Part shown: piece by piece, positions 1-40,898 of the stretch | Layout: each line of letters opens with the position of its first letter | Position numbering within the stretch: position 1 is the stretch's first letter | Assembly: GCA_028681135.1 (NCBI GenBank) | Contig: JAQUJC010000004.1 | Location: forward strand, 8,107-72,106 | DNA from: Kiritimatiellia bacterium | Lineage (GTDB): Bacteria; Verrucomicrobiota; Kiritimatiellia; CAIQIC01; Lenti-01 | Direction of reading: 5' to 3' | DNA length: 64,000 nt | Notes under the pieces: generated by a model | Databases searched by the model: none | Told to the model about the DNA's origin: nothing | The model's input: only the letters and a program-made list of their open reading frames with translations | Program-made: the position numbers and the translations under genes

Positions 1-438
1 GCCCATCACCTTTTCCACCCCGGCGCGGTTGTACCAACTGCGATCAAAAAGCACCATTTCGCCCGCCGTCGGCAACTGCATCACATAACGCTCGAAATAC
101 CACTGTGATTTTTGCTTGTCCGTCGGGGTGCCCAACGCCACCACGCGGCACACGCGTGGATTCAACCGCTGGGTGATGCGTTTAATAACTCCGCCCTTGC
201 CCGCCGCGTCGCGCCCCTCGAAAATCACCACCACCTTGAGCCCCTTGGCCTTGATCCATTCCTGCAGCTTCACCAGCTCCACCTGCAGCTTGGCCAGTTC
301 TTTATTATACTTCCAGGTCTTCTTCGGCTTCGATGGTTTCTTGGATTCCTGCTTCGCAGCCTTGGCCGCCTTGGAGGCGGAGGGTGATTTTCTTGCCCCT
401 TTGGCTGCTGTTGCCTTCTTTGCCTTCATGCCCACTCC
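1..438 (-). CDS. ppk2: Polyphosphate kinase 2 (PPK2), N-terminal part. The gene continues beyond the window's left edge, so its 3' end is missing.
   Basis: The reverse-strand translation from the ATG at 436-438 reads [143 protein letters not shown]. It contains the PPK2 Walker-A-like motif (GRDAAGKGG) and the YFERY and DRSWYNR motifs. The gene is missing from the ORF track because it is truncated by the window edge. Confidence 0.85.
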
Positions 439-639: not shown

Positions 640-2973
640 TCATTCCACCACGATTTGAACCCCATCGCTAAGGCCGCGGGCGCTGGCGCAGACGATCTGG
701 TGGTGGCCGCGTTCGAGGGGCCAGAAGAGCGGTTGTCCCGAGCGGGACTGTCCCACGGGGCGGTCGTCGATGAACCAATGCAGTGTCTCGTCGGCGCGGT
801 CGGTGGCGGCTTCGAGCGCTAGTTGTTGGCAGAGGGTCTCGTGGCTGGGCATCTGCCGATAGACGCTATCCCGCGCCGGGGTGAGAATCCGCAGTGCGGC
901 CATGGGCGACTCACTGGCCGGTGTCATGCGGCGGTTGAGGAACGACGCGACCGCGGCGGGCCAAACGGCCTCGGGCCCCGTCCGATGCACGGGGCAAGTC
1001 GTATGGCGCGACACCTGGGCAATGCTCCAGTCCTCGATGTGCTGCGTGCAATGCGGTCCCGGTACGCCTCCGCTGACGGCGCATACCGTTCGCAATTCCA
1101 CGCCCGCCGGACGAGCAAAGGCCGGCCCGGTATTATCCGGATAGAGTTGGCGCACCATATCCCATGCGATCGGGGTTGCCGCCAGGCGCCCGACCAGGGT
1201 GTCCGATCCGCTGCCATCGGCATTCCCCACCCAGACCCCCACGACGATGTCCGGATTCCAGGCGACGGTCCACGCATCGCGCAGCCCCGCCGAGGTTCCC
1301 GTCTTCCAGGCCATCGGCGGCAGCCGTACATCCGCCAGATGCCCCGTTGCATCCATTGCACGCTCGTTGCCCGAGAGCATCTCGCTCACCAGCCAGCAGG
1401 CTTCGGGCGAGAACACCGGCTTGAGCGTCAGCGCCGCGGTGGACTCCAGCACCCGCACGGGTGCCCATTGGCCACCCCGCGCCAGACAGGCATAGGCATT
1501 CGCCAGTTCCAGCAGCCGCACCTCCGCGCCGCCCAGCACCAGCCCCAGCCCATAATGCTCCGCGGGGTGCGTCAGGGTCGTCAATCCCACCTCGCATAAC
1601 GTGGCATGGAAGCGCGCCGGTCCCGTCCGGCGCACCACGTCAATGGCCGGTAAATTCAGCGACAAAACCAGCGCCTCCCTCGCGCTGACCACACCGCGAA
1701 ACTCAGGCGAATAATTTTGTGGATCAAAGTCGCGAAATCGCATGGGCACATCGGCCAACATCGTGGCGGGAGTGATGAGGCCCCGGTCGAACGCCAGCGC
1801 ATAGGCAAAGGGCTTGAGGGTAGAGCCGGCGGCGCGGGCCGCGGTAGCACCATTCACCTGCCCGGCCCGCGGCGCGAAATAATCCGGCGAGCCCACCAGC
1901 GCGCGCACTGCGCCAGTCTGCACGTCGAGCACCACAATCGCCCCACTGGTGGCCGCGTTGTCGTTCAGCCGCCGCCGCAAGACGCCCTCCGCTATGCGCT
2001 GCCACTCGGCATCGAGGGTGGTTGTGATCAGGCCCTTTTCACGCGGGGATGTCGGCACCCCGACCCAATCGCAGAAATGTGGCGCGCGGAAGGGATAGCG
2101 CCCCGGACGCAGAGATAGCGGCTGCGCCAGCGCGTCGGCCCGCTGTTGGGGTGTAATCTGTCCGCACGCCTCCATCCGTTCCAGCACATAGGCCTGGCGG
2201 ACGTTGGCCCGCTCGGGGTGCCGATCGGGCCGCAGCCGCGAGGGCGACTGCGGCAACCCGGCCAGCAGGGCGGCTTCGGCCAAACTGAGGTGCGCCGGTC
2301 GCTTCCCAAAATAGCGCTGTGCGGCCGCCTCGATGCCTACGATGTTGCCGCCAAACGGCGCGCGGTCCAGATAATGGGCCAATATCTCGCGCTTATCACA
2401 GCGCCGTTCCAGTTGCAGCGCGCGGAAGGCCTCGATGGCCTTGGTCAGGAGCGTACGCCGCCGGGGGTGGGCCATTCGGATTACCTGAGTGGAGATTGTG
2501 GAGGCCCCCGACACCCGACGCCCCGACCCGATATTCTGTCCGATGGCCCGCACCAGCGCGAGCGGGTCAATCCCGCCATGCTGCCAAAACCGCTGGTCTT
2601 CCGCCGCGACAATCGCCTGGTCAATCCAATGCGATGGATCGGGCTGATACCCCGCTCGGCAATCGAATCCGCCCGCCCCCAGCCGGATCCGCAGGGGGGC
2701 CCCGTGGCGATCCGCCACGACGACCGCCCGCGGCAGGTGATTCAGCGCCGCCTCTGGGAATGGCACCACATGCAATGCAAGCCAGATCGCGGCGGGCACC
2801 AGCAAAACCAAACCCCATACCACGAGACGGCCGTGGCCTGCGGGTAGGGCGAGGCCTCCCCGCCGAGCCGCTTGAATGGATCGGCTCACCGGGACGGTTC
2901 GCCCTACCCCATTTCTGGCTGTCTCGACGCCCCCGTCGGGGGGATGCCGTCTCTTTTGCCGTGGATTCTTCAC
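640..2973 (-). CDS. pbpC: Penicillin-binding protein 1C. It is a bifunctional class A PBP with GT51 transglycosylase and transpeptidase domains.
   Basis: GT51 motifs are present (EDQRFWQHGGIDPLALVRA and GASTISTQV). The transpeptidase STLKPF (SxxK) motif and a C-terminal PbpC-type domain are also present. The start overlaps the stop of the upstream A2M gene by 4 nt at 2970-2973. A2M-pbpC synteny is conserved in E. coli. Confidence 0.85.
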   Translation of the reverse strand: MKNPRQKRRHPPDGGVETARNGVGRTVPVSRSIQAARRGGLALPAGHGRLVVWGLVLLVPAAIWLALHVVPFPEAALNHLPRAVVVADRHGAPLRIRLGAGGFDCRAGYQPDPSHWIDQAIVAAEDQRFWQHGGIDPLALVRAIGQNIGSGRRVSGASTISTQVIRMAHPRRRTLLTKAIEAFRALQLERRCDKREILAHYLDRAPFGGNIVGIEAAAQRYFGKRPAHLSLAEAALLAGLPQSPSRLRPDRHPERANVRQAYVLERMEACGQITPQQRADALAQPLSLRPGRYPFRAPHFCDWVGVPTSPREKGLITTTLDAEWQRIAEGVLRRRLNDNAATSGAIVVLDVQTGAVRALVGSPDYFAPRAGQVNGATAARAAGSTLKPFAYALAFDRGLITPATMLADVPMRFRDFDPQNYSPEFRGVVSAREALVLSLNLPAIDVVRRTGPARFHATLCEVGLTTLTHPAEHYGLGLVLGGAEVRLLELANAYACLARGGQWAPVRVLESTAALTLKPVFSPEACWLVSEMLSGNERAMDATGHLADVRLPPMAWKTGTSAGLRDAWTVAWNPDIVVGVWVGNADGSGSDTLVGRLAATPIAWDMVRQLYPDNTGPAFARPAGVELRTVCAVSGGVPGPHCTQHIEDWSIAQVSRHTTCPVHRTGPEAVWPAAVASFLNRRMTPASESPMAALRILTPARDSVYRQMPSHETLCQQLALEAATDRADETLHWFIDDRPVGQSRSGQPLFWPLERGHHQIVCASARGLSDGVQIVVE

Positions 2974-5900
2974 GGTACGACGTGCACTTCTCCACCGCCG
3001 CCCACGCCGCGGATATCCGGCTCATACATGCCCGAGACCACCACCGGCGGCAGGACATATACCCCCGGCGTCACCGCGCGCACGGCGTAATGGAACTGGG
3101 CCGGTTTCCAAATGGCCCCGGTGAAGATCAGCATCCGGTCATCCCGGGCATCGCGATACTGATCGCCTTCTTTCTTCTGTTTCAACCAGGGCACCTGCTG
3201 GGACGCCGCAAAATTGGGATTTTCGATCTCGAGCCCCGCCGGCAGCAAATCCTCGATCACCAGTTGATCGAGACGATTACCCAGCGGGTCCACGGTCAAC
3301 CGCACCACCCGTAACGCCCCTTGCGGCAGCGCCGTCATGTCGGCCGCATTCCCGGAGAGGTCCAGGAATTCACGCTGAATGGCGACGCCATTGCTCGTCG
3401 CCGTCTCGGGTGTCATTGCGACGCCCTCATGGCGCGCCCACAGGTAGAGTTTGCCGGGGCCGTCATTCTGAACGCGCAGGGGCGCCACCGCACCGGGCCC
3501 CGCCGACCACGTAACATCGTTGGTGGGGCCCACAGTCATGGTGCGGCCATCGGGGAGCGTCACCACGGCAGAAAAGGGTTCTTCCGTATCGGGCAGATAG
3601 CGCGCCAGCTTACCAACGGCCAGCAGCGCGAGTGCATTATCCTGGGTGTTGCCCCAATGCCCATCCCGCTGCCGGTCGCGCAAGGCCTGAGCCAATCGCG
3701 CGACGGCGGCATTATCTGGATCCACCTCCAGCCACGCCGAGAGCAGCAAGGCGGCGTCGCGCACATCACTATCCAAGAGCCGTCCGGGGGTGCGGGTACG
3801 CGACACCGGCAGCGCCAACGTCTCCATCAGTGCCACCGCCTGGCGCGGCTCGCCCGCCAGAATCAGCGCCGCGGCCGTCTGGGCTTTGGCGGCAAAACTG
3901 AGCTGATCGGCCTGCTCGCGCAACCGCGCATTCCAGCCAGCATCCGGCCGTCCCGCCAGCGCCAACACCTGGCAATAGTATGCGCGCATGCCCATCTCGG
4001 TGCGCCAAGTTTCCGGGCTGGCGCCAGGCGGAACTGCGCGATCAAGACGCCCGCGCACCCAGGCCAGGCCCGCCTCGAGTGGGCCCTCCGGCACCGTAAA
4101 CCCGGCAGCTTTGGCCTCGACCAGAAAGTGAATCGTATAGATGGATTCCTCCACAGCGGTTCCTCGCAAGAACGGCCAGAGCGCAAAGCCGCCATTCTCC
4201 TGCTGCATGGACAGCGCCCGCGCAATGGCCTGCGACACGATCATGTCGCAGTCACCCACGGCACGTTTCCCGGGCAGCAGACGCTCCACCCAGTCCTCGG
4301 CGTAGAGCAGCGGGAACGCCTCCGACACCGTCTGTTCGAGACAGCCATAGGGATAGTGAATCAGGTAGTCCAGCGCCCGCCCCACCTGGGCCGAGGGCAG
4401 CGACGACAGCGCACCCGACGCAAACAGCGATTCCGGCAACCAGTCGGCCGGTGCCTCGACATCCAGCGACTCGCCCGGCTTGAGCACCTGGAGGGTCGTC
4501 GCCACGCGAGTGCCAGCCGCGGGCCGCACCGCCAGCTCGATCGTCTCCCGATAGGTTTCGGTGCCCGCCACGATCTCGAGGGTACACAATGCTTTTCCAG
4601 GCCCCGGCCCGGCCGTCAGCGAGAGGGGCAGATGGGCCGCCTCCCCCGCCGCCAAGGTCACGGTCTGCTCGGCCTGCGCGACCTGCAACGGCCCGCCGCA
4701 CGTCACGCGCACGGTGGCCGACTTCGCCTCATCGCTGATATTATGCAACGCCACCGATGCCTCGGCCCGGTCGCCCAGCGCCAGGAACCGCGGCAGCGCG
4801 GGCTGGATCACGACCTCGCGCCGCACCACGACCGCGGTCGAGGTGGACCCGCACTGCGTCGTATTAAATGCGACCGCCATCACTCGCAGTTCGCCGCTGA
4901 ATTCGGGCAGGTCTATCTGAAAGTCTGCGTGTCCCTCCGCATCCAGCGGCACGTCGGCCACCCACAAGGCCAGGGGCTTAAAGCGATTGGCCTTGATGGG
5001 ATTCAGCCGCTTACGCAAAGCGCCCGCCCCATCGCCCCCCGCCGCGGGTGTGCTCACCAGCTCCTCCTCCAGGATCGGCATCAACTCGCTATACAGGTCA
5101 TAAGCCGACGACATCAACGCGCGCTGGGCGGTAAAGAGTTGCAGGGGGTCCGGGGTCTGGAACACCGTCAACAGGCAGATCGCCTCGTCCACGGCCATCA
5201 CGGTTACCCGCCCCGCCGCCGGCGCCCCCGTGGAAGTGCAAACCGTCACAGACCCTGTCAATGGTGCCTGCGGATGCGTCGTTTGGGGTGCATCAATGGT
5301 CACGCGCAACTCCCGCTGGGGCTGCTCCACCGGCAACGCAATAGTCCCGATGGCCCGGTGCGCGCTCCAGACCGCCTCCGCCGTTGCCGGACGAATCAGG
5401 GTCAACGTACACCAGGCGTTGGGCGCGTACAGCGCCTCCACGGGCACCTCGATCTCGGCGGTATTCTTCTCCAGGATGACCACCCGGGCTTCGTGTACGT
5501 GGTCCGTTTCGACCGTCAGCAATGCCCGGCCGGTAAAGGGTGCGCGCACCTGTAAGCGAGCGGTCTCGCCCGCGCGAAACTGCGGCCTGTCCCACGACAA
5601 GTCGATGTGGCCTGGCTTTTCCCGGCTCCAGGCCGCCCACGCCGGATCCGCCGATGCCACCCAAAACGTCAGCCGCGCGGCGGCGCCCGACGCCGGTTCC
5701 ACCGCGGCCAGCATGTACTCACCCGGGGCATCCACGGCAAAGCTCCAGTCCCGCGGCTCGCCCCCCGCTGCGAGGGTATCCTGATGAATCTCGATAACCT
5801 GCCGTTCCGATTTCCATTCATAGAGCCCGACCCGGTTGCGGCGCAGCACCGAACTCCAGGTCACTCGCGACACGGTCAGGACCAGCGGCTTGTCAGCCGT

Positions 5901-6446
5901 GACCGGCGTGCCATCCGGCTGAACCTCGACCACAGCCACGCGTTGGGTCACGCCCACCCGCGGCGCCCGGCCCCACGAGGGTTTCAGGCCCACATAAAAC
6001 GGATACGCATCAACCCGCGCCGACCCATAGGCGGTTACGGCACGCCCGCTGGACTCCATCACGGTGGCACCCAACACCACGCTCAATGCTGCGGGGGGGC
6101 GCCAGGCCTTGCGTGTATCCACCACAAACTGCCCCGCGCCTTCGGCATCAAGGTGCCCCGCGCCAATTTTCCGATGGATGGGGGCAAATTCTTTTTCCGG
6201 ATCGCCGAAAGTCCACCCCGGCCAATTGGAGGGGGAGAATGGGGCCGGCGCGACTGTTGCCATGGCTGTCACCTTGAGACCCGCCGCCGGGGCTCCGAAC
6301 AAATGCTCGCCGTGCGCGTTAAAGGTCAGCACATCGCCCGCCGCGGCCCGCCCCGGCGGTGACTCCACCTCGACACGAATTTGCGGCGGAACAAAGTCTT
6401 CGAGTGCCACCGCGGTCTGCCCCAGCACCGTATGGGTACCCGGCAT
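2970..6446 (-). CDS. Alpha-2-macroglobulin family protein, C-terminal 1158-aa portion. It carries a thioester-type CLEQ motif.
   Basis: The translation shows MG-domain-like repeats, the GCLEQTVSEAFPLLY thioester region, and an alpha-helical TED-like region. It lies in the same reading frame as the upstream ORF 6453..8381, separated from it only by a TAA stop and two codons. Confidence 0.8.
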   Translation of the reverse strand: MPGTHTVLGQTAVALEDFVPPQIRVEVESPPGRAAAGDVLTFNAHGEHLFGAPAAGLKVTAMATVAPAPFSPSNWPGWTFGDPEKEFAPIHRKIGAGHLDAEGAGQFVVDTRKAWRPPAALSVVLGATVMESSGRAVTAYGSARVDAYPFYVGLKPSWGRAPRVGVTQRVAVVEVQPDGTPVTADKPLVLTVSRVTWSSVLRRNRVGLYEWKSERQVIEIHQDTLAAGGEPRDWSFAVDAPGEYMLAAVEPASGAAARLTFWVASADPAWAAWSREKPGHIDLSWDRPQFRAGETARLQVRAPFTGRALLTVETDHVHEARVVILEKNTAEIEVPVEALYAPNAWCTLTLIRPATAEAVWSAHRAIGTIALPVEQPQRELRVTIDAPQTTHPQAPLTGSVTVCTSTGAPAAGRVTVMAVDEAICLLTVFQTPDPLQLFTAQRALMSSAYDLYSELMPILEEELVSTPAAGGDGAGALRKRLNPIKANRFKPLALWVADVPLDAEGHADFQIDLPEFSGELRVMAVAFNTTQCGSTSTAVVVRREVVIQPALPRFLALGDRAEASVALHNISDEAKSATVRVTCGGPLQVAQAEQTVTLAAGEAAHLPLSLTAGPGPGKALCTLEIVAGTETYRETIELAVRPAAGTRVATTLQVLKPGESLDVEAPADWLPESLFASGALSSLPSAQVGRALDYLIHYPYGCLEQTVSEAFPLLYAEDWVERLLPGKRAVGDCDMIVSQAIARALSMQQENGGFALWPFLRGTAVEESIYTIHFLVEAKAAGFTVPEGPLEAGLAWVRGRLDRAVPPGASPETWRTEMGMRAYYCQVLALAGRPDAGWNARLREQADQLSFAAKAQTAAALILAGEPRQAVALMETLALPVSRTRTPGRLLDSDVRDAALLLSAWLEVDPDNAAVARLAQALRDRQRDGHWGNTQDNALALLAVGKLARYLPDTEEPFSAVVTLPDGRTMTVGPTNDVTWSAGPGAVAPLRVQNDGPGKLYLWARHEGVAMTPETATSNGVAIQREFLDLSGNAADMTALPQGALRVVRLTVDPLGNRLDQLVIEDLLPAGLEIENPNFAASQQVPWLKQKKEGDQYRDARDDRMLIFTGAIWKPAQFHYAVRAVTPGVYVLPPVVVSGMYEPDIRGVGGGGEVHVVP

Positions 6447-6452
6447 GGCCAG

Positions 6453-8381
6453 TTAAAAGCGATAGCGCCCCGTCGGCAGATAATCCGGCAAGGTCACCTC
6501 GCAGGTAGCCGACCCCATATCATCCAGCTCAACTGTGATATCCCGGAACAGGTTTCCATCCGGCCGCCAGACGCGCATCAGCGCCGGGAACGGCGCGGGG
6601 GCGCGCATCTGATCGTCACGCGCCAAGACCTGCACAAACACATTTTCGCCCGGACGATAAATGCCGCGTTCGGTAAAGACAGCCGCCTCAAGCTGGCCCG
6701 GTTGCAGATAGGCCCGCCCCCCCGTCCCGGCCGCGGCAGCGACACCGGTGCGCTCCAGGTCAATATAGGTCAAGTCCCCTTCGGTCTCAGCCACCACCAC
6801 AAACGGCGTCTCGCCCTCGGGCAGTACCATACGCGCCAGCCCCTGTTCATCCGTGGCCCCCCGCGCGATGACCTGATTATTGCGGGCATAGACCGTCACC
6901 GCGGCATCGGCAACGGGTTCGGCACTTCCCAGGCGATTGACCCAAGCCAGGACACGCCCTTCGGACACCCGCGTCGCGAGCCCCAAGTCCGTCACAACCA
7001 GCAAACGCCCATCGCCCCGCGCATGTTCCTCGCCCACCTCCAGCCAATAGATGCCGCGCGGCTCGCCTGCCGTCAGCCGCCGCAATTCCACCCGACTGCG
7101 CACGGGCGCCCCATCCGTTGCCGGTGCCAGCGTATTGGTAATCGCGCTGCCGGACCCGGTCAAATCGTCAGCGGTTTTCCCATAATAGCGATATCGTCTG
7201 GTTTCTCTAAGCGCCAATTGCACGAGGTTATTCGCGAAGACGGGACTTAACCGCGCCACATACTGCTCCAAATTCGCCGCCAGCACCGGCACGCACAAGG
7301 CCCCCCCCGGTGCCAGATAGCGCCCCGGCGAATCAACCCGCACGGCTTTTTTACGCGGGGGAAACTGAATCTTGCGGGACAGGGTCTGCGGCAGGCTCGA
7401 CCCATTGGCCGCTGGCAAGCCCTCTTTGAACGTGATGTCATAAATCGCGCCCGGCTGGAAATCGCCCCGCACCAGCAGTCCCTTCCACCAGTATGCATTC
7501 ACCGACTCCACCGTAAACGCCACCGCGGGATCAACCGTCACATACTCCTTGATCTCATTCCACTCTGGCCGGGCCGTAAAATCAGCCCGTAGAACCAGCG
7601 AATCGAACGCCGGGCTTTCCACCTCCACATTACGCAACAACATATTCATTTCCATCTTGAGCGACCCCTTCTTGCGGCGGTCGGTCGGCTGGGAATCGCT
7701 TGCGGAAGGCAACCCTGCCTCCAGCACATACTCCAGTTTCTCGCCCAGCACCGGGCGGGTTTGCAGCAGCAAGACATTGGGTTCCGGCGTCCTGTTCAGT
7801 TGATACGCCACCTCGCCCTGCCCCGGCACCGACAGCGTCAGGAACCGTGTCATCTGGGCGCGGTCAGGCTGGTCACTGAAAGTCAGACGCACGATCAGCT
7901 CACGCTCCGGCGACACATCAACCTGTTCCACCTTTCGCAGCCGCAGAATACGCTTCACCACGGGCGCCGACTTTTCCGTGGTCTTGGGCGCTGCCGCCCC
8001 CGCCAACTCCATCCGCGTCAGATGATCTGTCACGCGCCACACGCCATAGCCATTCACCAGCAGGAAGGCCAGCGCCAGGGCGAACCACCGCCCCGCCCGG
8101 CTTCGGTTCAGGTCCTGCCCGGCCATCACCGCCCCGCCCACGGCCACCTCGGCCGCGGCTTCGGCGAAGGTCTCCGGCGGGTCCATTTCCGCCAAAATAT
8201 GCTCGATGGTTTCCAGGCCCTCTTCGCCCCGCGCGGCAGCCCGGCGCCAGGCCTCGGCAATATGGTCCCGTAGCCCCGCCACTACCTCGTGACGCACCGC
8301 CGGGGGCTTGTGCGCCAAATGACGCTCCACCTCATGCAGATACGCCTCCACCCGCTGAACGACCGCTTTGTTATTCTTCAT
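6453..8381 (-). CDS. Alpha-2-macroglobulin N-terminal portion. It is fused to an N-terminal cytoplasmic DUF1700/HAAS-like helical domain and a single TM anchor. The C-terminal portion is separated by an in-frame TAA.
   Basis: The N-terminus reads MKNNKAVVQRVEAYLHEVERHLAHKPPAVRHEVVAGLRDHIAEAWRRAAARGEEGLETIEHILAEMDPPETFAE, which has the DUF1700/HAAS pattern. A TM helix (WFALALAFLLVNGYGVW) follows. After that come A2M-type MG domains (GIYWLEV..LLVVTDLGLATR and RGIYRPGENVFVQVLARD). The ATG at 8379-8381 overlaps the PadR stop at 8378-8380 (ATGA coupling). The longer track ORF starting at 8540 would overlap PadR by 160 nt and is rejected. Confidence 0.75.
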   Translation of the reverse strand: MKNNKAVVQRVEAYLHEVERHLAHKPPAVRHEVVAGLRDHIAEAWRRAAARGEEGLETIEHILAEMDPPETFAEAAAEVAVGGAVMAGQDLNRSRAGRWFALALAFLLVNGYGVWRVTDHLTRMELAGAAAPKTTEKSAPVVKRILRLRKVEQVDVSPERELIVRLTFSDQPDRAQMTRFLTLSVPGQGEVAYQLNRTPEPNVLLLQTRPVLGEKLEYVLEAGLPSASDSQPTDRRKKGSLKMEMNMLLRNVEVESPAFDSLVLRADFTARPEWNEIKEYVTVDPAVAFTVESVNAYWWKGLLVRGDFQPGAIYDITFKEGLPAANGSSLPQTLSRKIQFPPRKKAVRVDSPGRYLAPGGALCVPVLAANLEQYVARLSPVFANNLVQLALRETRRYRYYGKTADDLTGSGSAITNTLAPATDGAPVRSRVELRRLTAGEPRGIYWLEVGEEHARGDGRLLVVTDLGLATRVSEGRVLAWVNRLGSAEPVADAAVTVYARNNQVIARGATDEQGLARMVLPEGETPFVVVAETEGDLTYIDLERTGVAAAAGTGGRAYLQPGQLEAAVFTERGIYRPGENVFVQVLARDDQMRAPAPFPALMRVWRPDGNLFRDITVELDDMGSATCEVTLPDYLPTGRYRF

Positions 8382-8719
8382 GTCCCGGATTCCTTGTCCT
8401 GCTTCAATTGCTCCATCGCTGCCACCAACATCGGCCAATAGGCATTCATTTCCGCCAGGCGCACCTTGCCCCGCGGCGTCAACGTGAAATAGCGCCGCGG
8501 CGGCCCCGACCCCGATGGCACGTCGCGCGACTTCAGACACCCCTCCGAGCGCAGCCGTCCCAAAATCGGATACACGGTGCTCTCCGAGACCGACAAATCC
8601 TCGATCCGCTTCAGAGCCTGGACGATCTCATAGCCATAGTTCTCCCCCCGCCGCAGCACCAGCAGCACACAGTACTCCAGCAACCCCTTGCGTAATTGGG
8701 TGATCCACCCTTCGATCAT
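8378..8719 (-). CDS. PadR-family transcriptional regulator.
   Basis: The 113-aa product (GLLEYCVLLVLRRGENYGYEIVQALKRIEDLSVSESTVYPILGRLRSEGCLKS) is a typical PadR winged-HTH. Its stop overlaps the start codon of the downstream HAAS-domain gene. Confidence 0.85.
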   Translation of the reverse strand: MIEGWITQLRKGLLEYCVLLVLRRGENYGYEIVQALKRIEDLSVSESTVYPILGRLRSEGCLKSRDVPSGSGPPRRYFTLTPRGKVRLAEMNAYWPMLVAAMEQLKQDKESGT

Positions 8720-8815
8720 GAGCTACTCCGCATCATGTATTACGTAATACATACTACCGGGTCAGCCGTCAAGCCCCTTTCCAATAATTAGAGTCTTGGG
8801 TCTCCCATTGCGCGG

Positions 8816-8927
8816 TTTTCCATAGCGTGGAAAAATCACGAAAAAGTTTTCCATAGCGTGGAAAATTCGCCCAAACGTTTTCCATAGCGTGGAAAAAACG
8901 CAAAAAAGTTTTCCATAGCGTGGAAAA
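8816..8927. promoter_or_regulatory. Array of four identical 19-bp palindromes (TTTTCCATAGCGTGGAAAA) at an exact 31-bp period, lying in the divergent PadR / Ser-Thr-kinase intergenic region. It is a putative multi-site operator.
   Basis: The units start at 8816, 8847, 8878 and 8909. The palindrome is perfectly conserved while the 12-bp A-rich spacers diverge. The 31-bp period is about three helical turns. Confidence 0.7.
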
Positions 8928-9093
8928 CCGGCGCGATACCAAGGGGCCCATGAGACCGTCTGAAAGGGCTACGGGCCGACCCCTTTCCTCCAGGCCCCCA
9001 GTCCTTATTCATCGCCCTGATTCAGGATTTAGTTCCATCGCAATGCAATTTAGCAGTTTGCTTTCCTGTGCGTTTGAAGCAAAATGGCGCTTT

Positions 9094-11394
9094 ATGGAAA
9101 CTGACACTCGGTCATCTGCTCACCCCGACCTTCCGGGCTATGAGATTCAGCAGCGTCTGGGCACTGGGGGTACGGCCACGGTCTGGCTGGCCCGACAGAT
9201 ATCCCTTGATCGCGTCGTGGCCATCAAGGTGCTGTCCCCCAAACTGCTAACCGACCAGGACGCCCGAACTCAATTCCAGGAAGAAGCGCGCGCGGCCGCC
9301 AAAATTTCGCAAGCGGCCATTGTCAGTATTCTGGATTTTGGGGAACACGACGGCCGCCTGTACTATGTCATGGAATATGTGGCCGGCACCAACCTCGCCG
9401 AATGGATACAGCAAAATCAGCGCATGGCCCACGGCCAGGTGCTCAAACTCGCTGAGATCATCGCCAACGCGCTCGACGCGGTGTGGCGCGAGACCTCCCT
9501 GATCCACTGCGACATCAAACCCGGCAACATCTTGCTCGGTGCCGATGGGGCGGTCAAGCTGACCGACCTGGGACTCGCCCGCATTGCCGGCTCCGCCGCC
9601 ACCCGCAGCGTCTCCGAAAATATTGAGGGGACCCCCTCGTACATTGCGCCCGAACAAATCGAAGGCCTCGAGCCCGACTGTCGCTCCGACATCTATTCGC
9701 TGGGCCTCAGCCTCTACCATCTTCTTACCGGCAACCCGCCCTTTGCCGATCGTGCCCTTCAGGATATTCTCGACGCCCAACAATCCGATTATCTCCCCGA
9801 TCCCTGCGACCTACTGCCGCGCCTGCCGGTCTCCTACGGGTGGTTATTGGCCAAAATGACCGCCAAAAACCCCGCCAAACGCCCGCAAAATTGGAGCGAA
9901 GTGCTCAAGGACCTCCACCAGATCAAGACTGGCAAATCGCCCCTGCCGCCCTATCCCGGCGAAGACGAAAGCACTATCCTGCTCAATCCCCGCCATCGCC
10001 CCGCCGCGCGCGCCAATACCATCAACCTATCCGCCGCCGGCAAAAAGGCCATCACGGTCTCCGCGTCCCACAACGCCCTCATCAGCCAACAGAAGCGCGG
10101 CTCTGCTTCCGCGCGGGCATCTTCCGGCGGGGGCTGTCTCCGCTTCCTGTTCTTTTTGATATTTTTGGCTGCCGTTCTGGGGGGCATCTGGCTATTGGCC
10201 TTCAGGAACCACCCCGAGCGCGTGGCGCAGCTAAAGGCCGTCCTCCAAGGCCACCCCCCACCCCCCCCCGCCCAGGCACCCGAACTGCAGCAACGCGACT
10301 CTGACCCGCCCCCCCCCGCTCCCGCGCCGGTCGAGTCGGTCGAGGAGGGGCCAGCCGCGGAACCCGAATCGTTGTCCGCCAGTACCGGCACCGTCACCCC
10401 CGGTGCCTGGAACCATCCCGGGTTCATCCAGGCCGCCAATCTCTTCAACGAAACTCTCACCCAATATCAGCAGCACCTGAAAAAGCCCGATCCCGCCAAT
10501 CCGGCCCTGCCTGGTCTGATCGCCGATGCCCAATATGCGGCCTTGCTGTTTGAAACCATCCGCGCCGACGCCCCCGACTCCGTGCCCGTCACCCACTATG
10601 CCAACCAGTGCTATCAACTGGTCAACGATCTGCGCCGCGCGCGCATGACGCTGGATGCCAAGCGCAATCGGCATGATCTGGCCCCCAAAAAACGTCATCC
10701 CGAGCTAGCCCCCTACCCCCTCCCCGAGGGTGACTCCACCGACCCCTTTGCGATGCACCACGGGCAATACGGCTATGCCTGGGATACCCTGCCCGCCCCG
10801 ATTGATCGTCCGGAGACGACCGAATTTATTTTGCTGCTCTCCGCCATTGCCACCCCCTCCCCCGACACCCGCATCCAATCCGGGTCGTATTTGCATGGCC
10901 CCTTGCGCGGCCTTGTGAGCCTGGAGGAGGCCCGTCGCCTCTTGAAGGTGCCCCCCGAACCCCGGACCCCCATCGAAGGCGCCCCCTTCCCCTATGGTGG
11001 ATTCTTCCAGACCACCTACCCCGCCAGCAAGCTCGGCTCCATCGGCCCCGGACAGCCGACCTATCCGCATATCCGGTTGATTACCGACGCAGAAGACCAA
11101 CTCGTCGCAGTTCAGCTCATTGATGAACACCCCGCCCCTCCCCTGCAAACGTCTCCGATGGCCTTTTCCACGGCCTCCCAGATCATGGACTTTGTCACCG
11201 GCCGCACGCTGCCCTCGAAGGGCGACATTCGCGCCCACCACAACACCCTGCGCGGCACCGGCACCTTACGCATTGACTCCGAAGTCGCCGATTTTGCCTC
11301 AGAATCCGATCCCACGCCAGTATTCCGCTCTGTGCTGCTGCTGCCCCAGCCCGTCGCCAACAATTTATTGTATCATCTGATGGGCACTCGCTAA
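9094..11394 (+). CDS. Hanks-type serine/threonine protein kinase. It has one TM helix and a ~380-aa C-terminal extracytoplasmic domain of unknown type.
   Basis: Kinase motifs are present: GTGGTATVW (glycine loop), AIK, HCDIKPGNILL, DLGLAR and GTPSYIAPE. A TM helix (LRFLFFLIFLAAVLGGIWLLAF) and a Pro-rich linker follow. The start is placed at the METDTR ATG (9094) because the track start at 8920 would lie inside the operator array. An alternative start is at 9042. Confidence 0.8.
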   Translation: METDTRSSAHPDLPGYEIQQRLGTGGTATVWLARQISLDRVVAIKVLSPKLLTDQDARTQFQEEARAAAKISQAAIVSILDFGEHDGRLYYVMEYVAGTNLAEWIQQNQRMAHGQVLKLAEIIANALDAVWRETSLIHCDIKPGNILLGADGAVKLTDLGLARIAGSAATRSVSENIEGTPSYIAPEQIEGLEPDCRSDIYSLGLSLYHLLTGNPPFADRALQDILDAQQSDYLPDPCDLLPRLPVSYGWLLAKMTAKNPAKRPQNWSEVLKDLHQIKTGKSPLPPYPGEDESTILLNPRHRPAARANTINLSAAGKKAITVSASHNALISQQKRGSASARASSGGGCLRFLFFLIFLAAVLGGIWLLAFRNHPERVAQLKAVLQGHPPPPPAQAPELQQRDSDPPPPAPAPVESVEEGPAAEPESLSASTGTVTPGAWNHPGFIQAANLFNETLTQYQQHLKKPDPANPALPGLIADAQYAALLFETIRADAPDSVPVTHYANQCYQLVNDLRRARMTLDAKRNRHDLAPKKRHPELAPYPLPEGDSTDPFAMHHGQYGYAWDTLPAPIDRPETTEFILLLSAIATPSPDTRIQSGSYLHGPLRGLVSLEEARRLLKVPPEPRTPIEGAPFPYGGFFQTTYPASKLGSIGPGQPTYPHIRLITDAEDQLVAVQLIDEHPAPPLQTSPMAFSTASQIMDFVTGRTLPSKGDIRAHHNTLRGTGTLRIDSEVADFASESDPTPVFRSVLLLPQPVANNLLYHLMGTR

Positions 11395-11409
11395 TACGGG
11401 AGCGCGACC

Positions 11410-12135
11410 ATGACCATTTTGGAGCATTTAATATCCACCCTCGACCTCGATGCCCCCGTCCGCGCCATCCGCCTGGGGATGTTTCACACCGCCGTGCTGA
11501 CCCGCCGCTGCGGACTCGCCGCCAGCCTGCCACGCGATGCCCTGCGCCAGAGCCCGCCGATGGTCCGCAACCCCGGCCAGCTTCTCGATTGGAGCGCGGC
11601 GGCCCTGGTTGGCTTGGCCCATTCAGAGCACCTGCTCGAAGCCGCCATCGGCATGGCCACCCTCAACTCCCTGCTGGAGGTGGACGAAAGCGCCTGCCAG
11701 GAACTCAATGCCTCCAACTACATCCTGGAAAAAGGGCGTGACCGCAATGTCGTGGTCGTCGGTCATTTTCCGTTCCTGCCCACTATCCGCGACGTCGCCC
11801 GCAATCTCTGGGTGCTGGAAAAGAATCCCCGTTCAGGCGATCACCCCGCCGAGCAAGCCGGGGAGCTGGTCCCGCAAGCCGATGTCGTGGCCATCACCGG
11901 CACCACCCTCACCAACCACACCCTGGAATCCCTGCTGCCCCTGTGTCGGCCAGACGCTTTTGTGATTCTGCTCGGCGACACGGCCCCCCTTTCCCCCGTC
12001 CTATTCGATTACGGCGTCTCCGCTGTTGCCGGCACCGTTGCCAACCAGCCCGAGGTCGTCCTGCGCCACATCTCCCAAGGCGCCACCTACCGCCAAATCC
12101 GCGGCATCCGCCGCCTCACCCTCCTCAAACCCTGA
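11410..12135 (+). CDS. DUF364/DUF4213-like Rossmann-fold protein (putative heavy-metal chelation domain family), probably in an operon with the kinase.
   Basis: The 241-aa ORF begins 15 nt after the kinase stop. The family assignment comes from overall pattern recognition only (RNVVVVGHFPFL ... DVVAITGTTLTNHT). No catalytic motif was identified. Confidence 0.45.
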   Translation: MTILEHLISTLDLDAPVRAIRLGMFHTAVLTRRCGLAASLPRDALRQSPPMVRNPGQLLDWSAAALVGLAHSEHLLEAAIGMATLNSLLEVDESACQELNASNYILEKGRDRNVVVVGHFPFLPTIRDVARNLWVLEKNPRSGDHPAEQAGELVPQADVVAITGTTLTNHTLESLLPLCRPDAFVILLGDTAPLSPVLFDYGVSAVAGTVANQPEVVLRHISQGATYRQIRGIRRLTLLKP

Positions 12136-13133: not shown

Positions 13134-14114
13134 CTACCCAGGTTCTTCGGCCCCTTCTTCACCGCCTCCACTGACGACTGGAACAGAGGTCGTCTGGCCA
13201 GAGATGTTGCCCGTCTTGCCGCCAATCTCGATCCAGTTACCATTGAGGGTGCGCCCAGTAAAGACCCTGGCCGCCACCGTTCCTTGCAACGTACCCACAA
13301 TCTTGACGTTCACACCCGCCTTGCTGATACCCTCGCATTCAAAGGATGCCACGATGCTATCCCCATCCGTTGGCAAGGGGCTTTCCTGATACGTGTACTT
13401 GGCGGACTTATCATTGCCCTCTTCATCGGCCCCCACCTGGGTGATGTCCGTGTTTTGACTGCCGGATGCCGACTGCATCTTCTTGATCCGACCGCTATAG
13501 GTGGCGCCATTGTTGTCGGTGAACGTCAGGTGCTGCCCTTGATGCATAATATTGAATGAATAGATACTGAACCGGGTTGATCCGGGTCTGGCACCGCTCC
13601 CAGAAGCCCCCTCGTTGGACACTTCATATGAATAGCTCGCACGAACAATGCCGTTAAAGACCGGCCCGATCACACCTGGATTCAGGGAATAGGTCCACGT
13701 TCCAGCCACATAAGAAATGGTTCCAGACCCCTGCCCTCCGCTCAGGAGACCGTTCCCATCGTCCGAGATACTATCCCACAGCACACCCGAACTATTGCTA
13801 AAGTCGATTTTCACGGATCCGGCAGAAATGTTGCCCTTCGTGAGCTTGCCCGAAAAAACAGTCTGCCCTCCCGAAAACCCTGGCTGGCTTTCATTTGAAA
13901 CCGAGAGAATGTTTGTGCTGCCAGGCGTGGCAGGCGTGGTGGTGTAATCGGTCACCAGAAAACCACCAGCCGCACTACGGTACACCCCGCTGAAGTTGAC
14001 CCAATCATAGGAGGAACTCCAGCTTTCGCCGTCACTGGTTGACGTCCACTCGCATCCCATGAGACCCAGCGCCGCTATTGCTGCGCACATACCGATTAAT
14101 ATAATCCGTTTCAT
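13134..14114 (-). CDS. Putative lipoprotein of unknown function, rich in Ser/Gly/Thr. It is the last gene of the giant-protein operon.
   Basis: The signal peptide plus lipobox reads MKRIILIGMCAAIAALGLMGC. No catalytic motifs are evident. GC content is lower than in neighbouring genes. Confidence 0.6.
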   Translation of the reverse strand: MKRIILIGMCAAIAALGLMGCEWTSTSDGESWSSSYDWVNFSGVYRSAAGGFLVTDYTTTPATPGSTNILSVSNESQPGFSGGQTVFSGKLTKGNISAGSVKIDFSNSSGVLWDSISDDGNGLLSGGQGSGTISYVAGTWTYSLNPGVIGPVFNGIVRASYSYEVSNEGASGSGARPGSTRFSIYSFNIMHQGQHLTFTDNNGATYSGRIKKMQSASGSQNTDITQVGADEEGNDKSAKYTYQESPLPTDGDSIVASFECEGISKAGVNVKIVGTLQGTVAARVFTGRTLNGNWIEIGGKTGNISGQTTSVPVVSGGGEEGAEEPG

Positions 14115-14222
14115 CCTGTCCCGTCTCCTTGCTAGATGCTACAACATTTGCTTACTTTAAACTGTTTATTCATCTGGCGTCAACGCCATTTGCTGGAGGC
14201 GACTAGTCGCCCCCGGCCAACG

Positions 14223-17200
14223 CTACTCCACGTACCGAATACGGAAGAACTTGGTGCCCCGACCGGGTGCGGGCGACACCGTGTTAGTATAAACCCCAGG
14301 CTGGGTGACCGCCGCCCGGAATTCCTCTTTCCACCCGCCTGGGGCCAGATTGGTGGCCGATTGGACCACGACGACTTTAGGCATGAGGCCAAGCACCTCG
14401 TAGGTCAACAAGAGCTGCTCTCCACTCTTCACCAGTGGTCCAACTGTCAGTTTAGGAATAGCCAGGGGCGCTGGATAGGTTTGGGTGGGATCTCTTCCCT
14501 GCGCAAAATTATCAATGTCTTTCCAGCCATCGCCACTCAAGTTGGACTGACCGTTCATGGTGGTGAGATTGCCCGCATAGCGATATTCATACGAGTCGAC
14601 GATTCCATCGTTATCGGTATCGGCATCGTAGATGACCAGATCGTTACCTGAATATTCGGCTAAGTTCCTGATCTTTATCCGTTTTTCAGCATAATCCACG
14701 CTATAGATAGTTGGGGTGTCAACGGTCCGGTCGTCCCGGCTGCCCTTGACCAACCCCCAGTTCTCGCCTTCATCCAGCACGCCATTGTTGTTTCGGTCGT
14801 AGAAGGCACGGACATGGAAATCACCAATCTCAACCCCCATCAGACTATACTCCCAATAGCCCGACCGGGGAATGGCCAACGCCTTGATCAAGACGCCGTT
14901 GCCGGAATACGCTTCGGCCACGATCTGAGCGTTAGATTCCCATCCATAGTAGTAAATGCGCCCCTTAATCATGGCGGCCCCGCCCTTTGCCGGCGGCTTG
15001 AAGCTCACCGCGAAATTCACCCAGTCGCTGGTGACGGATGCGCGCGGGTTGTAAGCCCGGACCTGGATGCGATACTGGCCATTCGTGAGAGCTCCGAAGC
15101 CAGCCAGCAACGGCAAATCAATTTCCGCATTCCCATCCAGGTTCACATAAGGCCGGTATTGGGTGGTGTTCAACACCGTCTGACCCGTTGCCGCATTCTG
15201 GATTTGAATCTGAATCCTGGTGGTATTAGGGTCCAGTTTCATGCGCAGTTTTTCGCGGGCAAAAATAAGATTGCCCGTCGGATATTCAACCACCGGCTTC
15301 GCTAGGGAGGACGGATAGGCGATCGCATTGGTCCCGCTGGCGAACACAACGCCATCGACAGTTCCAACCGTCCACTCATAGGAGCCGTACATCGGCTCGA
15401 TACCGCCCAGTTTCAGATCCATTTCCATAATGTTCGGGCGGCCCAGCGACTCAAGGTTGCGGGTGGTCGAGTAGATGATCGGTTTGCCCGCCTCGCTCAG
15501 CGCTTTGATCGCGACCCGGTAGGTGGTTCCAGCGACGTGCGCGATCGCCTCTTGAATCGCACCCATCTGCTGTTCCCAGGAGAAACGAATATATCCGGCG
15601 GGCTTGTCAGTTAGAGGAATCTTGATGTTCACTGCACCCAACTGGATGTCTTCTATACCGCTCTCGCTAAAGCCGAGCCACTCACCTGCATTCCACTTGC
15701 CATCGGCATTCATATCGATAAACGCCATGAAAATATTGGGACCTTTGTGTACATGGCCAATCGACCATTCAGTGACAGTTGCCATCGTTCCACTTTCAAA
15801 GACGCTTTGGACGGGAATCAGGACTTGAGCGTCTGGTGCCTGCATTTCAAGATCGGAAAAGGCCCACACAATCAAAGCCACAGCATCCGGCTCCAGATAA
15901 CCATCATCTGATATCTCAAATTCGGTAGCCACTACATATTCAAGAGCTTGGCCATAAAAATTGAACTTAAACTGGGGCAAAGGAAACGATTTTCCATCGT
16001 CTGGCCTTGTCGGGGATACAATGGTTCTATCCACAATTTCCCATTGGACATCCCAAGTTTGATTGCTTGCTATCCAGTTTGATACTGCTTGATAGCTATA
16101 ATCAACACCGGTTCCCAGATACTCGGACAAGTTATCCCAGCCATCGTTATCTGGATCGAGGTTGGGATCGTATCGCCGCGGGCTGCAGGCTAGCGGGAAG
16201 ATCGACTCCCAGGCATCGGGCATTTTGTCGGTATCCGTGTGCAGGGTGCCATAGGTCGCACCAGTGGTGGGGCTGTCATAGTCGCCTCGACCATCGCCAT
16301 CGGAATCGAATCGATTGGGATCAGTTCCGGCCTGCAATTCCGCCCAGTTGTTCAGACCGTCGTGGTCTGGGTCGCCCCAGGCACCAAAAGTGAAGTCGGC
16401 CGGGTCGTAGACATAGCCGACCTCGTCGCCAGGCGAGCTATTCCCATCGGGGTCCATGCCATTCAAGATATCCCACCAGTTGGGAATGCCATCGTAGTTG
16501 TTGTCTTCCTGGAAGGGATATTCGGCCGGATCCAACTCTACGAACTGGACATCGCTGATCATTTGACCGGCATAATCCCAATCCAATGGATTCTGGTAAT
16601 CTTCCAGAGTGAACCCGCCATCATCCGCCGGATAATAGCCGGCTAAGGCCAACCGATAGATCTGGATGGGATCCGTGAGGATCGAGGGATAATCGCCGGT
16701 CTCCATGCGCATGGCCGGAAAAATATACACTCCCGGTTCCTCTGCGTTGTCCTTTACTATTGCGCGATCTTCCGCCAACTCGCTGCGCTGGAAGTCAAAG
16801 TTGAAGTAGGTGATCAAACCGGGTTCGTTGCCGTACAGGCTTTGCTTGTTATAGAGGTTCAGCTCTCCGCGGGACAAACCGCGATTCCAGACCCGGACTT
16901 CGTCGGCATCGGCCGCAAGCTGATGGCCAATCGAGAGCGGACCTGCCAGGCTGCGAACCCCCCAGTTCACAATTTTCTCTCCCAAGGGCACCAGGGTAGG
17001 ATCCTGGACGGCATCGATGATTCCATCTACATATAAGGCCGCCTTGTTGGCATCACGCACATAGGCGACATGATGCCACTCCCCATCATTAATGGGCATG
17101 GCCCCGACGATATTATTGACGGTGGGATTCAAGATGACCTCAGACTCATCGATCACACCTTCTTCCCCTTCTTCCTCCTTGGTATAGGCGAGCACCCAGC

Positions 17201-20200
17201 GTCCGATCAGGGTGCCATCGGATTGCATGCCGAGATAATAGTTAAAATCCTCGCCGCCGAGATCGGTACCGGTATTCCAGCGGGCGATAATCGTTCCAGG
17301 CGACTGGCTCGTTGTTTTCACCCAGGCTTCCAGCGTCCAAGTGTCCAGGGAATCGATTGTAATGCCGGTAACGGGGTCCGCCGTCAAGCAGTTCTGCCGC
17401 AAATGATCATTGCCGCCGGTGGTGCGCAGGACGGCTGGATCCAAGGCGCCGTAGCCCAGGAACAGGTTGCGGCCCTTGAAGGCGGCAATTTCGGCATCCG
17501 AGCGGGAAATGGCCCAAACGCGGATTTCCTTGAGGTCGCCTACATATCCATTACCACCGAACACGAGGTCGCCAGGGCCTTGGGCCGGGACCAGTGTGGC
17601 GGGGCCATAGTTATTCCGCTTGCCATCCACAAACAGCGACAACACGCCCGTCGCCAAATCAAAACGAGCCGCCACATGGGTCCATTCGGAGAGCGCCAGG
17701 GGCGTCAACCCAACGATTTCCTTGATGACTCCGCCCGCGCCGCTTTGGAAGCGCACATAGGGCATGGCGTTGGTAGTCAATCCCAGTTCATAGTTGATCC
17801 GGCCTGTGGCTTGAACCTGGCGCGAGACCAAAGAAACGCGAGTGGCCGGATAGGCGGCCGGGCGAACCAGCGCTTCGATCGTCCAGTTGGTCAAGCTGTG
17901 GCGTTCGGTCTCTTCCAAGCCGATCTTGTCGCTAACCACCACCTGCCCGACACCCCCGCCATCGCCAAATCGCAGCGCCCGGAAAATCATCGGGCTGTAG
18001 GAACGCCTTGGATCACTTTCCCGATTATCTACCCCACGGACTTCGTCCCCATCGTTAATTTCATCGTCATCGGTATCCATTCTGGTGGGATCCGTGAAAT
18101 AGATATTCAACTCGTCATAGTTGGACAGGTCATCGCCATCGGAATCCCAATCGGCGTCGGAGATAATGCCGGCGGGATCGAGTGAGAACTCGTTGAACGG
18201 ATCGACCCCCAGTCTGTAGGACCAATAGTTGTTGATGCCGTTCCCGTTGGGATCCAGGTTGGCAATGGAGTCACCCAACGGATCGTACCCGTATTGCTGG
18301 TACCACCAATCGGGAATGCCATCGCCATTGGAGTCATAGACTGTGTTGGTTCCCGGTCCGGCCCCATCCCACAATTCAACAACGGAGTCGATGCGCGCAA
18401 AACGCAACGGCAGCAAGTCATTGAACAATGGCGACTGGGTGGCGGGGTCGAATGCCCGAGCGACCGGATACACATCGGGGTGGCGCTCCATCCGGTAAAA
18501 ATTGGCATGATAGTAGCCAAGGTTGTAAGGGTTAGCGGTATTCGGGAAGGAGCGGGTCAGGGTGTTGTCTGCCAGCGAATAGGTGGAGGTATGGTAGGGA
18601 GAATCGGCGGGAGGATCGAGCGGCAGCCGGGCGACAAGGTTAACGATCCAAGGAACATACAGGTAGTTGTTGTACACCAGTGACCGATCGGCGGCCGTAC
18701 CCCACCACGGAACATGGGGATAGGAACCATCGTTCGGGCGTCCATTTAGAAGATCAAATCCAACCGGAAGAATGCCCTCGCTTGAGGGGTCCAGCAGGTT
18801 GTCGAAGTTATAGAGATACTTGAGTTCGGGCGTGGCATTGGTGGACAGCAGCGGACGTTGGTACGTCTTGACATCGGCCATGCGCAACTTGCGAGACATG
18901 TCGCGTTGCACTTCTGTCATGGTTTTTGCGCCATTCCAAATTCGAACTTCATCCACCCACCCTACAAGGAAGCTGTGCAGATCCGGGGCCGTGAAGGTGG
19001 TTCCCGCCTGAGATCCGACCCAGACCGGCTGGCCATTGACCCGGCCGACGGGATTGCGGTCGGCAGCGCCGACCACGAGCGGGGCATCAAACGTGAAGCC
19101 AGGATTGACATCCAGATAAATCGGATCCGGCGTGGACCAGCCATTGGCAGGACGCTCGGCGGAAGCAATACTCGCACGCATTTCGCCGTTCACATAGAGG
19201 AACAATTTCTTTTGGGCACCATCGTAGACCCCGGAGAGGTGCTGCCACCGGTCGGCTTCCAGCGGGTGGATGCTTTTGGCGATGACATCCTGATACTCGA
19301 GTCCGTCAAAGCCCGCACCTGTATAGGAAACCAAAGGTCGTCCATCGGCATCGATCGCCAGCCGGAAGTTGCGGCGAATGCCTTCCGGAAAACTCATGAC
19401 GTTTCCATCGGGAATCCAGACTGGGCGTTCAACCACGACTTGGAGCGCGCCGGAGGCGGGCTCCACAGGCTTGACCCACGCCTCGACCGTGAATTCGGTC
19501 AGATCGTTCAAGCCATGCAGGAAACTGCCCCGGGTACGAGCGGCGGCATCGCCGTTGAGGTACAAAGCACGGCGGCGCGGTGGTGCCTCCGAACTCAACG
19601 GATCAGTGCTGCCCGGACTTGCTTGCGAATCCACGAGTTCGGCCCGGTCGCCCAGCATGTCGGCATCAGTGTCGAAACCTTCGGAATTTTCGAACGAGAA
19701 CAGATAACTGGGCGGTGTCCAGCCCGAAGGGCCGTAGTACCATCCGGGTGCCAACAAGGCTAGAGAACCCAGGTCGTAGTACAGGTTTACAAAGCTACTC
19801 TGATAGCTGGGGTCGGTGATCCAGGAAGGGGATGGGTCCGTATGATAATACTTGGGCGGGGGCGCATTGGGTTGAAGCGATTCCTCCCAGTTGGGCAATC
19901 CGTCCTGGTCAGGATCGGCAAAGGGCGACCCCGCAACATAGGGGGCCACACGGATGTCAAAGGTGGGGGGCATCCCCGCCAAGACCGTTGCGCCCAAAAC
20001 CATGGAGTTGTGCACATCCAGTACGCCAAACATAGGATTGAGACCGTGGTAGATCTCCCAATAGTCATCCATGCCGTCGAGATCGGTGTCGAGAAGCCGA
20101 GGATTCGTCGAGGTGTAGCGGCTGTTAACGGGTGGGATGAAGAAGAACGGCACCGTATTGACATTGAGGTGCCAATCCCAGGCGAAAGGAGTCCCGGTGA

Positions 20201-22268: not shown

Positions 22269-22327
22269 CGATCCTGATGGTGCCGATCCCGTTACGATCC
22301 TTGTCGTTCAAAATCTGCTTTCCGGCG

Positions 22328-31914: not shown

Positions 31915-32489
31915 AATTGATCGGACTCCTCCGCCGAGCGGGTCGCACCCGCTTCCTCGAGTTCAGGCGCGGCATCCTCGGCCATGTCCGCCTGTTTCTT
32001 TTCCAACGCCTGCAGTTCAAGCTGGACCCGGACCCGGTCGTTGGCCAGTTTCATGGTCTCGCGCCTGATCTCACTTGAACGCCCGACAACGACGGTTTGT
32101 CGGGAGGTGAACGCCACATAATTGGTATGTTCTGACATGCGTTGCGCCAGTGCTTCTTGCTGGGCATGCAAATCGCGCTGCATCGCTTCGATTTGCTCCA
32201 CCATTTCCCGTAATTCTTCGTCGGTATCCAATAGGTGCTGGCGAAGTTCAAACTGTTCGCGCTGTGCCTCGCGCGCCTGCGTCATCAACCCCTTTTTTTC
32301 GTCGTCAAGCACAGCCATCTGGCTATCAATCCGCTCGACCCGATTCCGAGCCTCGTGAATCTGTTCTTCCAATTCTTCCGCCGTTGGCATGAACGCCCCA
32401 GTCTGAGTTTCGTTCGCCAAGCCTACGAACGGAAATACTGCGATCAAGACCGCAAGAAAAGCAACTGAATAGACACGGCAAAACAACAT
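31911..32489 (-). CDS. Small signal-anchored coiled-coil protein (192 aa). It is translationally coupled to giant protein 2 by a 4-nt overlap.
   Basis: A preferred start gives MLFCRVYSVAFLAVLIAVFPFVGLANE..., a signal or TM segment followed by a long coiled coil (EELEEQIHEARNRVERIDSQMAVLDDEKKGLMTQAREAQREQFELRQ...). The stop overlaps the ATG of the giant gene. The architecture is paralogous to 22328..22888. Confidence 0.65.
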   Translation of the reverse strand: MLFCRVYSVAFLAVLIAVFPFVGLANETQTGAFMPTAEELEEQIHEARNRVERIDSQMAVLDDEKKGLMTQAREAQREQFELRQHLLDTDEELREMVEQIEAMQRDLHAQQEALAQRMSEHTNYVAFTSRQTVVVGRSSEIRRETMKLANDRVRVQLELQALEKKQADMAEDAAPELEEAGATRSAEESDQL

Positions 32490-33691: not shown

Positions 33692-33721
33692 GGGAAGTCA
33701 ATCGCAGACGCCACAGCGCGA

Positions 33722-40892: not shown

Positions 40893-40898
40893 ATTGGC

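Follow-up and report, generated by a model that had tools for sequence, protein, structure and literature searches.

We analysed a 64,000-nucleotide stretch of contig JAQUJC010000004.1 (GenBank assembly GCA_028681135.1; hereafter the window) from an uncultured Kiritimatiellia bacterium, which carries on its minus strand an alpha-2-macroglobulin (A2M) gene with one in-frame stop codon in its interior. Translation of window 8540..2970 gave a frame that runs from the ATG at 8381 to a TGA at 2972..2970, and this otherwise-open frame of 5412 nucleotides (nt) contains a single internal stop, a TAA. On the minus strand, 6480..6420 reads ...GGG CGC TAT CGC TTT TAA CTG GCC ATG CCG GGT ACC..., which is translated as G R Y R F * L A M P G T. 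The 1803 codons consist of 642 codons, the stop, two codons for Leu and Ala, and then 1158 codons beginning with the ATG at 6446, located 6 nt past the TAA. A first-pass annotation made from the sequence alone had given coordinates for the two open reading frames (ORFs) and for the TAA, and these were confirmed by our translation. It had counted 643 amino acids (aa) for the upstream product; the actual product has 642, since the larger figure includes the stop.

Judged from their sequences, the two ORFs are one disrupted A2M gene. Pfam matches in the upstream ORF are HAAS, bMG3 and MG2, and those in the downstream ORF are bMG5, bMG6, A2M_BRD, A2M and bMG10; each of the A2M, A2M_BRD, MG2 and bMG models scores over its Pfam cut-off. 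When fused, the two translations align over their whole length with more than 80 proteins of about 1800 aa that have no break, most of them encoded in Kiritimatiellia or 'Verrucomicrobia' metagenome-assembled genomes (MAGs). Because of this end-to-end alignment the two ORFs represent one gene and not a chance juxtaposition, which upholds the first-pass view of contiguous A2M sequence broken by a nonsense codon, with a combined length of about 1803 aa that is normal for a bacterial A2M. Matches of the A2M in the Protein Data Bank were 4RTD, 5A42, 4ZIQ and 4U48 (E. coli YfhM/ECAM and Salmonella A2M) at E about 1e-99, and a phmmer search of the same database gave 4RTD and 4U48, also at E about 1e-99, covering residues about 450-1799. 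In an intact relative (P0126), the MG2 match comprises residues 566-648 and spans residue 643; the stop therefore lies within a macroglobulin (MG) domain, not between domains.

By its sequence features the gene is a type-I bacterial A2M, with a CXEQ motif, a bait region, an MG series and an adjacent pbpC gene. The CXEQ thioester motif is the hallmark of type I A2M (PMC5764988), and a pbpC located directly downstream is the arrangement described for type I A2Ms (PMC5764988; PMC4498604). Like E. coli YfhM/ECAM and Salmonella Sa-A2M, the window gene has CLEQ, a bait region, bMG3/5/6/10 and pbpC directly downstream. Unlike them, it is broken by a nonsense codon, its start is overlapped by a padR gene, and its protein would be anchored by a cytoplasmic HAAS domain and a transmembrane (TM) helix, not by a lipoprotein signal. 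The N-terminus is MKNNKAVVQRVEAYLHEV..., and no lipobox or lipoprotein signal was seen in it when it was read from the translation, without a dedicated signal-peptide predictor. The features of the locus are listed in Table 1.

Table 1. Features of the interrupted A2M gene and its operon (window coordinates).
Feature	Position	Strand	Basis or remark
Whole type-I A2M gene	2970..8381	-	1803 codons plus terminal TGA; sole interruption is codon 643
In-frame TAA nonsense codon, codon 643	6453..6455	-	Derived T at window 6455; C in close relatives (CAA, Gln)
N-terminal ORF, 642 aa: HAAS, one TM helix, N-terminal MG domains, truncated MG domain	6456..8381	-	Pfam; exact product is MDD2239267.1, MDD4342345.1
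Downstream ORF, 1158 aa: bMG5, bMG6, bait region, A2M, thioester region, bMG10; no N-terminal export signal	2970..6446	-	Separate coding sequence in GenBank, MDD2239266.1
HAAS domain, aa 13-75, predicted cytoplasmic	8157..8345	-	Pfam PF22564, 38.6 bits, cut-off 27
Hydrophobic stretch WFALALAFLLVNGYGVW, aa 99-115, inferred single TM anchor	8037..8087	-	Read off the translation
MG domain (Pfam MG2 model) cut by the stop	6459..6686	-	Match breaks off at profile position 77 of 96, just where the ORF ends
Bait-region domain A2M_BRD, downstream of the stop	5169..5606	-	Pfam
CLEQ thioester motif, aa 1347-1350, downstream of the stop	4332..4343	-	Translation
padR, 113 aa	8378..8719	-	TGA overlaps the A2M ATG (ATGA); PadR 74.4 bits, cut-off 27
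pbpC (PBP1C), 777 aa	640..2973	-	GTG start overlaps the A2M TGA (GTGA); TIGR02073 PBP_1c 619.9 bits, cut-off 494.2

Comparison of the site with orthologous A2M genes, which the first-pass annotation had proposed as a check, placed a sense codon at the position of the stop in every case. The 82 best orthologues were aligned with MAFFT, and the column of the stop codon holds Glu in 70, Asp in 3, Gln in 3 and other residues in 6 of them, with none interrupted (0/82). The flanks of the site, YLPTGRYxxELAMPGTxTVLG...LEDFV, are among the most conserved A2M segments in this alignment. A gene naturally split at this point in relatives, which the same annotation had regarded as the sign of two real genes, was found in no orthologue. 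When loci from species-representative genomes were translated over the matched region, 31 of 32 were without any stop. The exception, the sole other disrupted copy, is at 3001..8417 of locus L038 (MAG MFD04716.bin.3.184), where straight translation meets 16 stops and the frame is broken; it looks like a frame-broken long-read assembly, for which indel errors in the assembly are a possible cause.

Three near-identical strains (99.0-99.9% DNA identity) carry CAA, encoding Gln, at codon 643. The closest (L001; JGI 3300044572, NCBI MDY0149857.1) is 99.90% identical to window 11956..4752 over 7205 ungapped nt, and one of its 7 differences is the C at 6455 where the window has T, which changes CAA to TAA. 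Four of the seven cluster within the last 190 nt of L001, consistent with strain variants breaking assemblies. The other two strains (L004, Logan SRR11702771; L005, Logan SRR11702755) encode intact 1803-aa proteins that are 99.1-99.2% identical. A partial protein of 1210 aa (P0006), found in a GenBank Kiritimatiellia MAG and in JGI metagenome 3300044572, differs from the window protein by Gln at 643 and one further residue. Other searches added no further allele of the codon. A 36-nt pattern over the site with N at the variable base had no match in the metagenome or genome contig collections; a look-up of the padR product (PadR is invariant) gave two extra contigs, both ending before codon 643; and the 1158-aa ORF and PbpC were absent from the positional index of exact products, the 1158-aa product being present in the cluster table. 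A protein-based scan of GTDB species representatives gave a best match of 81% aa identity and did not recover the window's own species.

The TAA allele itself is present in three records, namely the window contig, GCA_028704045.1 and the Logan assembly of SRR22315503. Two GenBank accessions, MDD2239267.1 and MDD4342345.1, hold exactly this truncated product of 642 aa. The first shares its 72.8-kb contig with the 1158-aa product MDD2239266.1, and this contig is presumably the window's own record. The second is on JAQVLR010000218.1 of MAG GCA_028704045.1 (L002), which shows 6 mismatches to the window, all of them G in L002 and all within its nt 1..28 (window 10260..10282); these look like a poly-G-type contig-end artefact. 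The Logan assembly (L003) also encodes the 642-aa product and is 100% identical to window 4249..8844. Because the three contigs end differently and come from at least two assembly pipelines, an assembler artefact appears unlikely on the sequence data.

The age of the lesion was estimated by polarising the substitutions between the window and L001 with L004 and L005. Over the 3630 nt of the A2M gene covered by L001, the C to T change was the only substitution unique to the window lineage, and no indel was found in the 5412 nt of the gene. The ratio of nonsynonymous to synonymous substitution rates (dN/dS) between the window and L004 or L005 was 0.14-0.16 overall and 0.10-0.13 downstream of the stop, and between the two intact alleles L004 and L005 it was 0.13 for the part downstream of the stop. 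Since the C to T change is the sole unique substitution, indels are absent and the downstream dN/dS is as between intact alleles, the lesion is very young. Decay of the downstream part has thus not yet begun, which fits a very recent event.

We therefore consider it highly probable that the stop is a real and very recent nonsense allele, Q643* (C to T on the coding strand at window 6455, CAA to TAA), in one strain lineage of this uncultured Kiritimatiellia bacterium. The first-pass annotation had left a choice between an inactivating mutation and a sequencing or assembly error, and had placed both above two polypeptides or read-through. That ranking is supported and is now narrowed to the real allele, with assembly error made unlikely by the two further assemblies that carry the TAA.

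Q643* is probably an inactivating, loss-of-function polymorphism. Translation would end at codon 643 and leave a 642-aa membrane-anchored stub with HAAS, the TM helix and the N-terminal MG domains. Such a stub would have neither the bait region nor the thioester domain, and protease trapping would be lost with them. A product re-initiated at the ATG at 6446 would begin MPGTHTVLGQTAVALEDF..., with no signal or membrane segment. Having no export signal, it could not reach the periplasm, and its bait region and thioester domain would stay cytoplasmic, unable to do the periplasmic job of an A2M. Unless ribosomes start again at 6446, polarity may lower the expression of pbpC, which is translationally coupled. 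Since the bait region and the thioester motif both lie downstream of the stop, the gene would amount to a newborn pseudogene or to a polymorphism with loss of function.

Like other strain-specific nonsense polymorphisms and nascent pseudogenes in bacteria and MAGs, the window gene has one substitution and is otherwise intact, with intact close strains and orthologues and no secondary decay. It is unlike ordinary nascent pseudogenes only in public annotation, where the halves appear as two normal coding sequences (CDSs), MDD2239267.1 ('MG2 domain-containing protein') and MDD2239266.1 ('alpha-2-macroglobulin family protein'). The two GenBank entries should be understood as the halves of a single disrupted gene. 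Events of this kind are already known; this is an ordinary one, and brings no new gene organisation, decoding or mechanism.

Several points weigh against Q643* as a genuine null allele. It is possible that all three TAA assemblies derive from a single study, or even a single read set, and the T could then be a recurrent sequencing error or a minority variant; a literature search on the run, assembly and sample accessions found no paper mentioning them. An intact downstream part is equally expected of a gene that is still functional. Because the mutation is younger than nearly all of the divergence measured, dN/dS is uninformative on current function and cannot separate a gene just broken from one still used. 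The loss of A2M function is itself something that we infer from the position of the stop, and with an ATG only 6 nt past it a second polypeptide may be made.

The alternative that survives best, which we nevertheless regard as unlikely, is an error of sequencing, assembly or consensus. The true codon would then be CAA, and the T at 6455 would either be an artefact or come from a minority variant that had entered the consensus. A single-base change that lengthens a T run (CGCTTTCAAC to CGCTTTTAAC) would suit such an error, and the short-read contigs break within or close to the gene in every assembly, which suggests mixed strains. Homopolymer errors are typically indels, whereas this change is a substitution. 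The same T recurs in the three records with their differing boundaries and at least two pipelines, and neither the A2M gene nor the other large genes of the window contain further frame breaks.

A functional split gene is less probable still, and we think it very unlikely. In this case translation would terminate at the TAA and re-initiate at the ATG at 6446, and the two polypeptides would assemble into a working A2M, like the chains of complement C3, which share one MG domain. Short-range termination-reinitiation is well established in bacteria, GenBank annotates two CDSs, and the downstream ORF is without decay. In the C3/C4 family the structure can accommodate a chain break within an MG domain, and in this respect the window gene resembles complement C3 and C4, two-chain thioester proteins in which one MG domain is built from two chains. 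The chains of C3 come from one precursor that is cut after folding. Unlike this post-folding cleavage of one secreted precursor, the second ORF of the window would be translated separately and without an export signal; its product starts MPGTHTVLGQTAVALEDFVPPQIR... and has neither a signal peptide nor a TM segment. The break falls inside a beta-sandwich MG domain and is shared by 0/82 proteins and by none of the related loci or close strains. Reading of the 20 nt upstream of the ATG at 6446 found no Shine-Dalgarno-like motif for this start, and selection has not had time to shape so recent a mutation. An internal promoter was considered and rejected, 3 promoter-like sites being found against 1.5 +/- 1.1 in shuffles.

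Read-through or recoding, in which the TAA would be decoded often enough to give useful amounts of full-length A2M (for example by a near-cognate tRNA-Gln restoring the wild-type residue), is the least credible of these alternatives and can be given hardly any weight: the base 3' of the stop is C, generally a weaker termination context, and the downstream frame is intact, but TAA, which both release factors recognise, leaks less than any other stop, it terminates other genes of the window (those for HisG, a Ser/Thr kinase and starch synthase), and the stop is kept in 0/82 orthologues and 0/3 near-identical strains. No stimulatory RNA or suppressor tRNA was found, there being no Rfam match and no tRNA gene within the window, and the fold of the 101 nt surrounding the site is no better than those of shuffled sequences (z = -0.9). 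An altered genetic code was rejected, since every other long same-frame adjacent ORF pair in the window consists of two unrelated genes, the other large genes are all unbroken, and several conserved genes have TAA as their terminator. Frameshifting at TTT-TAA was also rejected; a +1 slip leaves the A2M frame, and the A2M sequence continues in the zero frame.

The nonsense allele Q643* lies in a three-gene operon, padR / HAAS-A2M / pbpC, which occupies window 640..8719 on the minus strand with 4-nt overlaps at both junctions (ATGA and GTGA). This gene order is kept in every related species-level locus with sufficient flanking sequence (also L008-L036). Across the related loci PadR is much better conserved than A2M, at 65-91% against 41-81% identity. 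Many of the MAGs with a related locus carry isolate names that refer to anaerobic digesters or anaerobic membrane bioreactors (AnMBR). The operon is a clade-wide feature, independent of the stop codon, and is more notable than the nonsense allele.

A HAAS domain and a PadR-like winged helix-turn-helix (wHTH) protein together form a signalling dyad, defined by Ravi et al. 2024 in mSystems (PMC11237479), in which signal-dependent control of PadR by HAAS is a proposal. Like these dyads, the window locus has an N-terminal HAAS on a membrane protein and an adjoining standalone padR gene. The HAAS partners given in that work are PspC, LiaI-LiaF-TM, Toastrack, FtsX-like and FtsW/RodA, and the word macroglobulin is absent from it (PMC11237479); unlike in its dyads, the extracytoplasmic module here is a complete A2M. 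This architecture suggests that the A2M may act as the extracytoplasmic sensor of a HAAS-PadR signalling dyad. A more specific idea, which we offer as speculation and think improbable, is that the operon is a protease-breach sensor. Bait cleavage and the large conformational change of the periplasmic A2M would be transmitted through the TM helix to HAAS and on to PadR, and Q643* would be a natural separation-of-function allele that keeps the HAAS-TM stub, loses the bait and thioester, and locks the regulatory output in one state. If this were true, Q643* would not be a simple null but a regulatory variant, either tolerated by a bioreactor population or favoured by selection in it.

Other genes of the window include two giant ORFs. 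The one at 22987..31962 (minus strand) encodes 2992 aa that include two subtilase (Peptidase_S8) domains, both of which have a fervidolysin-like prodomain; NHL repeats and CarboxypepD_reg domains are also present. The gene for a very large secreted protease thus lies about 15 kb away from the protease-inhibitor operon. The other, at 14226..22307 (minus strand), encodes 2694 aa in which Pfam recognises three Laminin_G_3 (concanavalin-like lectin) stretches and nothing else, leaving the greater part of the protein without a family. An envelope or exopolysaccharide cluster at 32810..43668 contains an ABC-2 permease, GT87-like, GT2 and GT4 proteins and a Wzy_C polymerase/ligase, and in it an AlgX-like SGNH protein adjoins an MBOAT acyltransferase as an alginate-type O-acetylation pair. 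Three consecutive, partly overlapping ORFs at 46403..49894 (plus strand) encode a Peptidase_C39-like protein, a RimK-like ATP-grasp protein with an RLAN N-terminal domain and a GCS2 glutamate-cysteine-ligase-like protein; this trio resembles a small cassette for peptide ligation or modification. At the thresholds used, Pfam matched none of the long minus-strand ORFs at 53173..55419 (749 aa), 13137..14138 (334 aa) and 31914..32597 (228 aa).

An accessory role in periplasmic defence and repair has been proposed for the type-I A2M/PBP1C pair (PMC5764988; PMC4498604), and loss of this module is plausibly tolerated. Read as a real nonsense allele, Q643* would mean that a natural population of this Kiritimatiellia species, probably one living in an anaerobic digester, can lose the envelope-defence module, which fits an accessory role. 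The A2M fused to HAAS and paired with PadR across many species is a more useful lead than the stop codon, and for the study of this HAAS-A2M/PadR pairing the truncated allele would be a ready-made natural mutant.

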